Source of the DNA: Catajapyx aquilonaris
Lineage: Eukaryota
Assembly (NCBI GenBank): GCA_000934665.2
Contig: KZ538024.1
Location: 124,001 to 155,309 of the forward strand
Reading direction: 5' to 3'
DNA: 31,309 nt
Shown: positions 4,627 through 25,624 of the stretch, one piece after another
Position numbering within the stretch: position 1 is the stretch's first letter
How the letters are laid out: each line of letters starts with the position of its first letter
Position numbers and translations under genes: made by a program
Notes under the pieces: model-generated
The model's database searches: none
Seen by the model: the letters and a program-made list of their open reading frames with translations, nothing else
What the model was told of the DNA's origin: nothing

Positions 4627-6779
4627 ATGAAGGGCTTTTGCTTCACCTTGATGGCTCTGTTCTTTTCGGTCACTGTGATGGTGAGTACTATAATCGGAGG
4701 TGAAGTTCCAGACACTTCGGGGATTCAGGTCACCAATTACGTCACTCTGACCACAGAGTTGCACTGGTTGTTACGGTGCTTGTGGTTATTTAACGTGCGT
4801 TCAAGTGGACCGTTATGTGAAGGGTTCCCATATCTGTGTAGTAAGTAATTATCATATATAACCATATTGCTCCAAAGTTGTAGAATTGGGGTTAAATACT
4901 ATTTTGTTAGATAACGTACACAGATTTAGGATAATCTATCTCATGGGAATACACTTTTTTGTCTCAATTCTGACTGAAAGTTAACAAAGCGTCGCATGTA
5001 AACAAATGTTTTCTAGGATTTATGTCCTCAAAACAGACTTAATGCGCTGGCTCGTTTAAATATTTGGAAATTAGTACCTTGCTTTTGTGCTTCACACAAT
5101 ATTAATCCAATATATTTTTTTCCATAAAGGCAATCTTCACATAATAAAAAGCAACAGCGCTTATGCAATATTATTCTGATTAAGTAGTCCACATAATATT
5201 ATTTAAAAGCCTGTCATAACTTCTATTAATAATATTATTTTGAGAGATATTTTCTTTTTCATGCTATTCATTAATTTTCAGGGAAACCTGCATACAGTGT
5301 GATCTTTTTAGTTATTGCAAATTTTGGCCAAGTTGTTACATTTGTGCGGCTTTTTGTGCCCCGCTCGAGGTGCTCACTTATTTCCAGGTGTGTTCGAATG
5401 TAGCAGTTGCTATATAATTGTGCACCTCGACCGGGTCGCAAACGCTTCACAAATGCTACAGCTTCGGGAAAAATTTGTGACAACTAAAAGGAAGCGAATA
5501 TTTGGAACACACTTACTAAGTTATAGCAATATTCGCTCCATTTTGCTCAAACTTTCCATATACTGTACACTTGCACAGTACAGGCAAGTTTCCACCGGGC
5601 TATATCAGCAGTGTTTGGGTATCTAAATAGACCGAACCAGAGCAAAAGGGACGAAAGTGAATAGTAAACGATTTCGAACAGTTTTGAGAACGATAAAGAG
5701 TCACGAAATAAAATTATTACATCTAATGAAATTCAGTACGCAAGAAATTTGTCAACCTTGTACGTAGTGTGTCCAGTCAGTTCAGTTGGAAGAATCCAAA
5801 GAACACTATTGGAGACATAATAAATGATCCTATTTGGGCCCAGTTGCGTCAAGTAGCTAATCAGTGACAATCTCTTTATCCTTCGCATTCATTGTTAACA
5901 ACAATATTCAAACTGTGAATAATAAGATTAACTACCGTATTTGTTCTGAATTTATGCTATTAATTACAAAGCCCACTCTGTAAGGCTGGGTTGCATGATT
6001 ATTAGCAAATGCAAAACAATCTGTTGGTCTTTGTTATTCAGTGAAATCAACAATATTCGAGAAACTGAAGAACATGGATGAACACCATGTTCTATTGTCT
6101 ACTTAGCCCACTACCAGTCCTTAGTTTTTTTTTAAAGTTCCTGATCAATAAGATAAGTCAAAAGTGAGGATAGGTTATGCTTGAGCTACATGCATTTGCA
6201 TAAGTAAATATTAACTGCGAATACCTTTAAAAATCTAGGTATATGCTTATATTCACACCAATCCTGCAGAGTTACAGTAAGGAATTCGGGTGCATGTATG
6301 CCCTATGATAAATCACTAGCTTAGACGACAAACTGGCCATGTTAGCATATATTGTGTTGTTGTTGTTGTTGTTGTTGTTGTTCTTCTTCTTCTTCTTCTT
6401 CTTCTTCTTTCTTCTAATTATTATTTCTTCTAATTATTATTTCTTAATTTCAGAATGCAGCAGAAATTCGTGACAAGTCAAGATTTTTCCTGAATACCAG
6501 AATTGGACCTAGTGAGTATAGTAAACCCAATGAACCATAACAACGTACCATAACAAAAAATTTCAGTACTGATTTCACTAGAAACCTAAATAAAGCATAG
6601 TAATTGTATGAATTTCCATTTATACAGGTTTTAACTTGTCATCTGTATTGGGGGTGCTCACGGGCGGCACAGTACCATCTGCAAACTCGAGCACACTCAA
6701 CCTGGGATTTTTCATGCCATTCAATCCTACAAATCCTGTGGTTCCACTCATATCCATTCCCCTCGATGGGAAGAAGTGA
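4627..6779 (+). CDS. Secreted prepropeptide A (87 aa, 3 coding exons), C-terminal GKK amidation signal
   Basis: Exons 4627-4680 (MKGFCFTLMALFFSVTVM|gtgagt), 6454-6511 (tttcag|NAAEIRDKSRFFLNTRIGP|gtgagt, phase 1) and 6628-6779 (tacag|SFNLSSVLGVLTGGTVPSANSSTLNLGFFMPFNPTNPVVPLISIPLDGKK*). TATAAAA at 4535, AATAAA at 7094. Intron phases 0,1 match the paralogues. An extra small exon in intron 1 cannot be excluded. Confidence 0.8.
6357..6407 (+). repeat. Compound microsatellite (TTG)8(TTC)9
   Basis: Read directly; followed by a duplicated ttcttctaattatta just upstream of the gene A exon 2 acceptor. Confidence 0.95.
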
Positions 6780-7650
6780 AATTTTATTGGCATCATGATT
6801 AGCTACCCACTCTGGAATATATCTCCTGGTTATGCTCAAATAATGCCTTTCTGAGGTATTCTTGCATAACCTTAGTGTGTGTGAAAATGATTGCATGCCT
6901 AGCAAAGAAGTACAAACTTTAATCACTGAATTACTTCAGGTGCTATTTTGGCAAGCAATGTTTAAAGGGCCAAGTGTGAAATGTGTAGGACACTATTAAT
7001 ACATATCTTCTAGTACCTTTCACTTCAGCACGGTTGTGTTAAGTGTATCGTATTGTTTTCTGTAACCATGTATTTTTACTGATTACGCTATGTAATAAAC
7101 GTATATACAGATGCAAAATATTCTAATGTCAGTAACATGAAACGTCCAAAAAAATACTGTATAACAATCAAAAGTTGTAGTACAAGTTTATTCTTTACCC
7201 TCCTGTTACACTACTTTTGAGTAGGCTGCACATTATCGCAAACAAAAATACAGTCTAATTTACTAATCATAATTAATGATTGTCTTATAGTCAAGAACAA
7301 TAGTTGTTTTCAAATTTGCTGCTTGAGTTAGTAACAGAAGGGAGTTTACAGTACAATATGTTTCGATGAGAAAATGGTATGGTAATAAATTGCACACCGC
7401 ACCACTCATGTCACATCAAAACATTATTGTCGTGTAAATATTAACACATTGACACTGATAGTAATGGACAGATCAGCGTCTCTATTATTAGAATTTTATG
7501 GTAACGCTCAGGTGCAGCTCTTTGAGCTGACCAAGGACATGTGATTTAAAAATTGCGCAACACAGAAGGTTACTATATCATTGCAAAAAAAACACACACT
7601 TGTTGGCAAATGCGTATCTTTTGATCTCCAAGTAAATTAAGCACAGTACA

Positions 7651-7657
7651 TATAAGA
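7651..7657 (+). promoter_or_regulatory. TATA box, gene B
   Basis: TATAAGA 59 bp before the ATG. Confidence 0.55.
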
Positions 7658-7709
7658 GCAAGGATCGCAGAGCTGGACACTTTCCTGTGTCAAGGATTTT
7701 GGAGTCACC

Positions 7710-23640: not shown

Positions 23641-23939
23641 TATAGTGTATATCCTAATGCTCTAAAATAGCGGCCAACACTAATGCTGCACAGTAGAAAA
23701 GAGAAAAATGGCCTTTCTGAACTTGCCTTGCTACACATATCTCCAAATTATATACATGTAGCCGTCAAATATAAATACATATTTCAAGGAAAAGTCCACA
23801 TTTCCTCTTCAAGTATGGCCTTATTTTATTATTACCATGTCACTACACTATTCATTACACTTCAGAGTGTCCTTGCTATCGCTTTAAAATTTCAGAAGAC
23901 CTGGTAAAAATTCATACAAACCTCTAAGAAATCCGCAAG

Positions 23940-23947
23940 TATATAAA
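23940..23947 (+). promoter_or_regulatory. TATA box, gene F
   Basis: TATATAAA 131 bp before the ATG, preceded by TCCGC as in C and E. Confidence 0.55.
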
Positions 23948-24070
23948 CCTCGTTTAGCTACCAATACCTCAATCGCACCAGGAGACGCGAATTTTGAATA
24001 GAGTTAGGAACTGTAGAACTTCTTTCTTAACACTAAAGTATTTCATCTAACAAGAATACAGTAGTCTACT

Positions 24071-25624
24071 ATGAAGGTTACACTAGCCATAATTATCGTG
24101 GGAGTGGCAGTAGTTACACACGGGCGTCTCATAGTAAGCTCAAGATAAGTTTTATGGCAGCGCTGTTGTCTCCTGTAATTTTGATTTTGCCTTTCAGCCC
24201 CCTGCTGATAATGTCCCAAATGAAGACGAATCGCTGATACAAAAAAGAATTATTCCTTTCGGCAGCAACAATGGGACCAGCACTGGTAAGAAGTCAACTC
24301 TTTATACTGCATGCCAACATGTAATTATTCTGGATGTATACGAGTAAGTCGTAATTAGTAGAATATACTAATCATCCAACGCTAAAAGAATATAAAATAA
24401 ATAGAAACATGATTAGCTCACTCCAGCGCTTATTCAAAAGTGCAGATGGCCATCAGGATGATAATTATATACAATATTGTGTGTTTTTTTTTAATTTACC
24501 CCGTGAATGACCTGTTAGGTCTTTAGGGGGTGGTGGATTACCACCATTGGTATTTTTTGGAGCGTGTTAAGATGAAATCTTATTAGTGTACTCCAGGGTT
24601 GGTAGGAGGGGATGTGCAAAGTGCATGTGCGCTGTCGTTAATTGGTCATTTTTGTGAACTCCCCCGGGTGGCTTAGTCTATCGGAAATTGCCACCCGAAA
24701 CGAAGTCAGAGATGGCCCAACTCTGCACGAAAGAAGGTGGGAACCCCGGGTGGGGATTGAACCCGGGACCTTAACTTCCGTGGGCGCGCGCGTTACCGCG
24801 GCGCCACTCCGTCTCCCTTACAATATTGTGTTATTCACTGCTACAGTACTTCGTAACATTTTCTACTCAGGAACAAACCCTTTTTCTGCTCCCAATTTAA
24901 ACATGTGATTTACTTATCTTCCTACCGGGACTGCAGTCGAATGGAATTCAATGGAAAAAAGTCAAAATTTTAATTCCCGCATGTGCATCACACCACAGGG
25001 AACCATTCACCAGTGCAATCATTAACCTTAAGCAAATTGTATTAGGTCTGACACATTAGGGATCTCGGACATAAGTGTCATGCACTGCATAATAATTGAT
25101 TGTTGACTACGATGAATAACATCCGTTAAATCTGAGCTTCCTAATACGAGTACATCCGAATTTTTAGTTAACTAGCCTTAGATAACTTTCTAAAATGATC
25201 AGGAGCTCACAACATCAAGCGATACATGACAATTCCATAGTCAATAGGCATGTAAATAATGACATTCTGGTCATGGTGCCCATGACAATAATTACCGGGT
25301 AATGTTGTATTGTACGAACGTCAAATAAACCCATTCTATTTTAATCCGAATCCTTAACCTGCAGTTATGGTGCTATCTTTAGGATTTTAAAATAATGCTC
25401 AAATTAAACAAAAATACATCCATAACAGGTCCAATAAATATGTTTTACTTTCACTCTCAGGTGGAGCCAACAATGCTGCTCTTAATGCAATAAGACATGC
25501 GATTAATGAGGTAGTTTCATTTCCTGGCAAAGCTGTGTCTGAAGCCATAACTATTATTTCACTTCCATTTGAAGTGCTTCGTTCTACAATTGGTTCTACC
25601 CTTGGTTCTACCCGCTTCGGCTAA
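24071..25624 (+). CDS. Secreted prepropeptide F (104 aa, 3 coding exons), ends RFG
   Basis: Exons 24071-24133 (MKVTLAIIIVGVAVVTHGRLI|gtaag), 24198-24285 (PPADNVPNEDESLIQKRIIPFGSNNGTST|gtaag) and 25461-25624 (GGANNAALNAIRHAINEVVSFPGKAVSEAITIISLPFEVLRSTIGSTLGSTRFG*). TATATAAA at 23940, AATAAA at 25659. Confidence 0.9.
24483..24818 (-). mobile_element. Full-length tRNA-derived SINE in intron 2 of gene F
   Basis: The minus-strand head has an A box (TGGCGCCGCGG) and a B box (GGTTCAATCCC), and there is an A-rich tail. Perfect 13-bp TSD TACAATATTGTGT at 24470-24482 and 24819-24831. Confidence 0.9.

Follow-up and report, generated by a model that had tools for sequence, protein, structure and literature searches.

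A tandem array of six candidate prepropeptide genes with glycine-ended products in Catajapyx aquilonaris

We analysed a stretch of 31,309 nucleotides (nt) from Catajapyx aquilonaris (assembly GCA_000934665.2, contig KZ538024.1, positions 124,001 to 155,309 of the forward strand), hereafter called the window, and found six three-exon genes, A to F, which follow one another in tandem from about 4.5 to 25.7 kb, all on the + strand. It is probable, judging from the sequence, that they form a tandem, lineage-restricted array of prepropeptide genes whose glycine (Gly) ends are used for amidation. A secreted peptide that ends in Gly, alone or with basic residues after it, carries the signal for amidation by carboxypeptidase E (CPE) and PAM. 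Should production and amidation of the products follow the prediction, the array would provide six candidates for synthesis. They would form a new family of secretory peptides released by processing, whose neutral, hydrophobic and sequon-bearing chemistry sets them apart from the usual cationic defence peptides or short neuropeptides.

Glycine-ended products and gene models

The six C-terminal strings reported in the initial annotation are each found once in the window, on the + strand, with a stop codon immediately after them. The span given there, 6765-25624, runs from the end of A to the stop of F. The string locations are as follows:

6759-6779, + strand: C-terminus of gene A, PLDGKK then stop
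10703-10717, + strand: C-terminus of gene B, LLAG then stop
15488-15502, + strand: C-terminus of gene C, QLGG then stop
21610-21627, + strand: C-terminus of gene D, FPIGK then stop
22957-22971, + strand: C-terminus of gene E, NTIG then stop
25610-25624, + strand: C-terminus of gene F, TRFG then stop

The endings are thus of three types, G in B, C, E and F, GK in D and GKK in A. The Gly itself is encoded by three different codons (GGG, GGT, GGC, GGG, GGC and GGC in A to F), and the stops that follow vary as well (TGA, TAA, TAA, TAG, TGA and TAA). Endings in G with up to two K or R residues occur in 31 of the 669 stop-to-stop frames of at least 30 amino acids (aa) on both strands of the whole window (4.6%). 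Given this background, and if the endings are independent, six out of six would be expected by chance with a probability of about 1e-8; the corresponding value computed from the Gly content of each predicted peptide (9, 29, 12, 5, 9 and 11% in A to F) is about 1.6e-6. The earlier statement that all six products end in this way can be relied on in four genes (A, C, E and F), which have canonical GT-AG introns, and depends on an inferred exon 2 in B and D.

A motif of the form [FILV]-P-[FILV] is present near the end of all six products, and the last motif is separated from the terminal Gly by 2, 6, 10, 1, 4 and 17 residues in A to F. This spread, from 1 to 17 residues, agrees with the initial remark that the sequence adjacent to the Gly differs between the genes. 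The composite pattern [FILV]P[FILV]-x(0-20)-G[KR]{0,2}-stop has 11 matches in the window, five of which lie in short frames away from the six ends, and is not diagnostic alone. One open stretch of 52 aa on the opposite strand, within D intron 1 (19616-19672, - strand), has the same kind of end; neither a signal exon nor a splice context could be recognised around it, and it is probably due to chance.

The definition of the genes made no use of the C-terminal endings. It was based on a scan of both strands for signal exons, i.e., an ATG and a hydrophobic open stretch of 14-29 codons followed by a GT[AG]AG donor. The scan returned 12 rows, seven of which represent six loci (E appears twice), all on the + strand, in phase 0, with 18-22 codons and a maximum 10-residue Kyte-Doolittle mean, a measure of hydrophobicity, of 2.4-3.35. 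These exons start at 4627, 7710, 13221, 17573, 22146 and 24071, so that every Gly-ended exon has one 5' of it. The remaining five rows (+6078/6087, which are in phase 2, and -15213, -8675 and -3712) are unlike these six, and the scan of both strands of the window gave no seventh phase-0 signal exon on the + strand. Exon 2 measures 58, 58, 67, 37, 121 and 88 nt in A to F, which always leaves a remainder of 1 on division by 3, so that intron phases are 0 and 1 throughout. With canonical splice sites, a single open three-exon path is obtained for each of A, C, E and F, with products of 87, 82, 93 and 104 aa:

4627..4680, + strand: coding part of A exon 1, an 18-codon signal exon (phase-0 donor GTGAGT; TATAAAA at 4535-4541)
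6454..6511, + strand: A exon 2, 58 nt, with RDKSR (acceptor ...ttaatttcag, donor gtgagt)
6628..6779, + strand: A terminal exon, ...IPLDGKK then TGA (string match and splice model)
13221..13280, + strand: C exon 1, a 20-codon signal exon, phase 0 (TATAAAA at 13147)
13979..14045, + strand: C exon 2, 67 nt, acidic propiece with a KR end (splice model)
15381..15502, + strand: C terminal exon, ...PGQLGG then TAA (AATAAA at 15565)
22146..22208, + strand: E exon 1, a 21-codon signal exon, phase 0 (TATAAAA at 22070)
22332..22452, + strand: E exon 2, 121 nt, with an acidic propiece, NIYKR, the peptide start and the sequon NGT (splice model)
22874..22971, + strand: E terminal exon, ...FPVNTIG then TGA (AATAAA at 23010)
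24071..24133, + strand: F exon 1, a 21-codon signal exon, phase 0 (TATATAA at 23940)
24198..24285, + strand: F exon 2, 88 nt, acidic propiece with a KR end and the sequon NGT (splice model)
25461..25624, + strand: F terminal exon, ...GSTRFG then TAA (AATAAA at 25659)

The models of B and D are tentative, and in D a micro-exon is an alternative to the exon 2 that we retained:

7710..7772, + strand: B exon 1, a 21-codon signal exon (phase-0 donor GTAAGA; TATAAG-like box about 60 nt upstream)
9490..9547, + strand: B exon 2, tentative, 58 nt, with REKR (weak acceptor, strong donor at 9547)
10137..10717, + strand: B terminal exon, of acidic Gly/Ser/Asn-rich low complexity, ...FVPLGELLAG then TAA (string match)
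17573..17638, + strand: D exon 1, a 22-codon signal exon, phase 0 (TATATAA at 17518)
20500..20536, + strand: D exon 2, inferred, 37 nt, with NTYKR (fair acceptor, weak donor GTTAGA)
21310-21316, + strand: alternative D exon 2, a 7-nt micro-exon, which gives the same downstream frame as 20500-20536
21512..21627, + strand: D terminal exon, ...NFPIGK then TAG (AATAAA at 21692)

Precursor lengths range from 72 to 104 aa, apart from the 233 aa of B. A TATA box lies 55-131 nt 5' of the ATG in five genes and a TATAAG-like box precedes B, the TATA box being the sole feature that the promoters have in common. In C, D, E and F, the stop is followed after 35-65 nt by the start of an AATAAA; in A it is first encountered at 7094, about 315 nt past the stop. 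The window is AT-rich (GC of about 33-51% in 1-kb windows, mostly 35-43%) and has no long bacterial-type open reading frames (ORFs). The TATA boxes, GT-AG introns and AATAAA signals identify it as eukaryotic DNA of animal type.

Two of the terminal exons have internal structure. In B, imperfect GGT/AGC and GGT/TTG codon repeats, together with an AAC run, give Gly/Ser, poly-Asn and Gly/Leu/Phe tracts at 10190-10330 and 10553-10680. The frame openness of B discussed below falls in the first of these tracts, and GC skew reaches 0.32 in 10001-11000. In F, an internal ...SFPGK... at 25520-25540 resembles the ...NFPIGK end of D, and a Gly end is found again some 30 residues later. Extension or internal duplication may account for this in F, or the gene may be the source of two amidated peptides via a monobasic cut. 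AlphaFold2, run on the F terminal exon without alignment, gives three helices at low confidence (mean pLDDT, the predicted local distance difference test, of 62.7), a model that we take only as a hint.

Divergence of the copies and searches for relatives

Relatedness was assessed by local alignment of the exon 2+3 products against 1000 shuffles. C and E are clearly related by sequence (z 9.5, 0 of 1000 shuffles reaching the observed score; BLASTP of the terminal exons, E 6e-07), and the observed score is reached by 8 shuffles for C-F, 25 for D-E, 34 for E-F and 34 for A-E. At the DNA level, there is no similarity between the six genes except in microsatellites. A likeness by eye between exon 2 of A and exon 2 of B was rejected, because 5090 of 10000 shuffles reached the observed identity. 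In gapped global alignments, paralogues share 26-47% identity in the mature regions and 14-55% in the signal exons. The case for a common origin of all six genes is therefore made mainly by orientation, tandem position, exon number and phase, signal-exon size and the shared pattern of Gly, motif, sequon and KR.

The copies appear to be of great age and to have evolved under coding constraint, since the proportion of synonymous differences (pS, 0.42-1.3) is saturated and exceeds that of nonsynonymous differences (pN) in all 45 comparisons (15 pairs in three regions). Saturation at synonymous sites also means that the ratio of nonsynonymous to synonymous rates (dN/dS) cannot test positive selection. 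An alignment of five terminal exons has one invariant column only. The terminal Gly has been kept in spite of this saturation, with varied codons, stops and tail lengths, so recent common ancestry is not the reason for its presence, and it looks selected. The locus would thus illustrate how a single processing signal, the terminal Gly, is held by selection while paralogues change almost everywhere else.

We then consider relatives outside the array. The queries were single exons of 20-53 aa and the ORF of B, not spliced precursors, which limits the sensitivity of these searches. None of the exon translations had a Pfam family, whether the E limit was 10 (13 exon pieces) or 0.1, in a scan made exon by exon from which profiles spanning exon joins could escape. 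In a word-indexed protein collection, none of 43 candidates scored when the F terminal exon was compared with longer proteins; the 229-aa ORF of B had a single match there (E 2.6e-3 over 4% of the query), which we took as low-complexity noise. Phmmer, run with the F terminal exon only, returned 0 matches among 1.84 billion representatives, and metagenome contigs held no relative when searched with a C/E profile and the F exon. The ESM Atlas was uninformative (best score 0.80, recognition 1385). Six 10-residue peptide strings were absent from open-access full texts, a scope that leaves aside supplements and non-open papers. The array thus appears to be an orphan, with relatives undetectable in the collections searched.

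Amidation and competing explanations

The genes suggest the following division of labour. Exon 1 would encode the signal peptide and exon 2 the propiece, while exons 2 and 3 together would encode a peptide of 42-65 residues (in B, a 199-residue acidic and Gly-rich body). Processing would involve 1) removal of the signal by signal peptidase; 2) cleavage after KR by a convertase of the furin or PC (proprotein convertase) type; 3) trimming of the terminal K (D) or KK (A) by an enzyme of the carboxypeptidase E/D type; and 4) conversion of the exposed X-Gly into X-amide by PAM. The predicted ends would be Asp-NH2 (A), Ala-NH2 (B), Gly-NH2 (C), Ile-NH2 (D and E) and Phe-NH2 (F, as -RFamide).

Several arguments point to an amidation signal on secretory peptides, which we consider the best reading of the sequence and a fairly likely one. 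First, hydrophobic signal exons are present in all six genes, in keeping with the proposal of the initial annotation that the products are amidated peptides of the secretory pathway. Second, C, E and F have a KR ahead of the predicted peptide in their secure models, as do D (NTYKR) and B (REKR) on inferred exons; no canonical site is seen in A. Products with a signal exon and a KR site should enter the pathway in which PAM acts. Third, the interchangeable use of G, GK and GKK fits trimming by a carboxypeptidase of the E/D type followed by amidation by PAM, and no other machinery is known to handle the three endings alike. PMC3241674 describes PAM as the sole amidating enzyme, and the same Gly-based logic underlies published predictions for myticalins (PMC5577615) and arminin-like peptides (PMC12013895).

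The propieces are short, and acidic in C, E and F. After removal of Gly and K/R, the peptides predicted for A and C to F have 42-65 aa and no Cys, a net charge of -2.2 to +0.9, an isoelectric point (pI) of 4.1-8.8, a grand average of hydropathy (GRAVY) of -0.05 to 0.61 and 5-21% Pro, with one or two N-x-S/T sequons each in the N-terminal third. Their predicted sequences are neutral, hydrophobic and proline-rich. The B peptide differs, with 199 residues, a net charge of -14 and 29% Gly.

A number of observations weigh against amidated products from all six genes. In A, RDKSR is the sole candidate site in exon 2, with no canonical dibasic pair and an unusual spacing of the basic residues, and Asp just before Gly is a poor PAM substrate. 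The chemistry of the set, neutral, hydrophobic and probably N-glycosylated, is atypical of known amidated antimicrobial peptides or neuropeptides. Kinship within the array is uneven: A, D and F appear to be tied only weakly to the C-E pair, BLASTP gives no alignment between E and F exon 2 or between the terminal exons of E and D, and B has no significant similarity to the other members (its scores are equalled or exceeded in 94-970 of 1000 shuffles). The Gly endings of B and D are model-dependent, being contingent on an inferred exon 2 that ends in phase 1. In B, two acceptors of greater strength, at 9464 and 9482, do not keep the frame, and only the weak one at 9490 reaches the Gly-ended frame; use of 9464 halts the reading after ...KQEN, and skipping exon 2 gives a product ending in ...LAMM. 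The repeat region of B is open in five frames, and neither AATAAA nor ATTAAA occurs within 450 nt past its stop. In D, the donor of exon 2 is weak (GTTAGA), and skipping the exon gives ...LISQ.

The behaviour of B and D raises the possibility, in our opinion somewhat unlikely, that the way in which the genes were modelled is partly responsible for the six out of six, with A, C, E and F intact and B, possibly also D, mis-modelled, differently spliced or decaying. The alternative endings, the low-complexity frames of B and its isolation within the array would all be explained. Yet the Gly-ended frame of B runs through 233 codons without a stop and exceeds the other frames in third-codon-position entropy (1.36 vs 1.00/0.79 in one region and 1.82 vs 1.35/1.29 in the other), which gives it modest support, and B shares with the others an end of the type [FILV]-P-[FILV]...G. 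As for D, exon 2 was picked from 28 candidates; both of those listed above give the Gly-Lys frame, and the NTYKR of the longer one parallels the NIYKR found at the same place in E. Even with only four genes, the probability of the endings by chance is about 4.5e-6.

The genes could also be genuine secreted-peptide genes in which the terminal Gly is kept for a role other than amidation, such as a flexible end, contact of a free acid with a receptor or partner, or an ancestral C-terminal module; the products would then retain a free Gly, Lys or Lys-Lys. This would relieve A of the Asp-amide, and the presence of the [FILV]-P-[FILV] motif near all six ends would be expected if the end were one conserved module. 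A requirement for a free terminal Gly is nevertheless hard to square with GK and GKK endings, and a Gly that moves between 1 and 17 residues from the motif is no fixed part of one module. As only trimming of the CPE type followed by PAM is generally known to treat the three endings alike, we regard this explanation as unlikely.

The initial annotation had envisaged amidated bioactive peptides from dense-core granules. In a specific version of this view, the genes would be classical precursors of neuropeptides or hormones, stored in the dense-core granules of neuronal or endocrine cells and acting on receptors, with F as a long RFamide. The order of signal, propiece, KR, peptide and Gly is that of such precursors, and F would end in -RFamide. 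But each precursor has one long peptide instead of several short copies, the paralogues have diverged so far that only C and E are clearly similar, and the peptides are neutral, hydrophobic and sequon-bearing. The failure to find relatives or Pfam matches, in the searches with single exons and the B ORF described above, is likewise what one would sooner expect of a family of defence peptides, venoms or pheromones, and we hold the neuropeptide version to be distinctly improbable. Because the tandem copies are old, fast-diverging and without detectable relatives, and each seems to yield one long neutral peptide, we favour a role in defence, as toxins or as pheromones, with secretion from exocrine or epithelial cells, over that of conserved neuropeptides, although sequence alone does not settle the cell type.

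A more speculative view, which we would rate as rather doubtful, is that amidation here marks a new class of animal peptides: long, Cys-free, uncharged, hydrophobic and Pro-rich, N-glycosylated at a conserved N-x-S/T close to the exon 2/3 join and amidated at the C-terminus. B would have inflated its body to about 200 residues while keeping the end made of motif and Gly. The amidated C-terminal module would then be the functional core, a tip binding membranes or receptors, and the rest would be free to vary.

Other features of the window and comparison with known systems

Besides the array, the window contains repeats and a possible neighbouring gene. Three inverted repeats resembling miniature inverted-repeat transposable elements (MITEs) have arms of 118, 98 and 122 nt that are 81-88% complementary:

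11849-12153: MITE-like inverted repeat, arms of 118 nt
23412-23612: MITE-like inverted repeat, arms of 98 nt
27022-27575: MITE-like inverted repeat, arms of 122 nt

The second of these gives sub-threshold Rfam matches to microRNA precursors (MIR6217, 52.7 bits vs a gathering score of 110), which probably reflect the hairpin only. Rfam and ARAGORN, applied to the window, returned nothing beyond sub-threshold hairpin matches and no tRNA. A GC-rich segment in F intron 2 (24660-24810) has tRNA-like arms by eye, suggestive of a tRNA-derived short interspersed element (SINE), and ARAGORN calls no tRNA in it. Long (AAT)n/(ATT)n microsatellites occupy 19053-19142 in D intron 1 and 22700-22743 in E intron 2. 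Downstream of the array, an 80-aa frame at 29654-29893 (- strand) has a sub-threshold EPTP match (E 6e-4, 20.2 bits vs a cut-off of 21), the only one among 132 flank ORFs. This region is a GC-rich block (about 51%) with long open frames on both strands, and a neighbouring gene may lie there. The 176-aa ORF on the + strand at 29558-30085 had no relatives in the protein collection that was searched for homologues of the F exon and the B ORF.

Prepropeptide genes that lie in tandem and signal amidation by a final Gly or Gly-Lys are already well known, and four systems invite comparison with the array. Amphibian skin precursors of the dermaseptin/brevinin type have a signal, an acidic spacer, KR and one variable peptide that often ends in Gly or in Gly and a basic residue, and they form tandem multigene families like the array. 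Their signal and spacer make up a highly conserved cassette and their peptides are cationic and amphipathic, whereas the signal exons of the array are 14-55% identical and its peptides neutral. RFamide precursors contain repeated short copies flanked by basic sites, whereas F has one peptide of 65 residues. They share with F the Arg-Phe-amide left after loss of Gly, an ending that would be formed in one of the six genes only.

Hydra arminins and the arminin-like peptides of Trichoplax, according to PMC12013895, resemble the array in being taxon-restricted, multigene secreted peptides with a signal, an acidic N-terminal region that is removed and a C-terminal active part with a Gly amidation signal. 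Compared by description, their C-terminal parts are alkaline, whereas those of the array have net charges of -2.2 to +0.9 (A and C to F) and -14 (B), and their precursors of about 150-250 aa are to be set against 72-104 aa (233 in B). C, E and F do have acidic propieces, as arminins do, but the predicted peptides, with pI of 4.1-8.8, do not fit an alkaline C-terminal part.

Myticalins, linear antimicrobial peptides of Mytilus gills, share several traits with the array according to PMC5577615: multiple genes, three exons, a phase-1 intron, Pro-rich and Cys-free products, a Lys-Arg site and an amidation predicted from Gly and a basic ending via CPE and PAM. Their domains follow another order, in which the signal precedes a cationic mature peptide, a dibasic site and an anionic C-terminal extension, whereas the propiece comes first in the array and nothing follows the Gly. 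Exon 1 of myticalins is 5' untranslated region only, whereas that of the array encodes the signal, and their mature peptides are over 10% Arg, with a pI above 11 that compares with 4.1-8.8 here. The array thus has neither the domain order nor the pI above 11 by which a myticalin would be recognised. Arminins and arminin-like peptides, myticalins and amphibian skin precursors are its closest analogues; it lacks the defining features of charge or domain order of each of them and is therefore a new family of a known kind.

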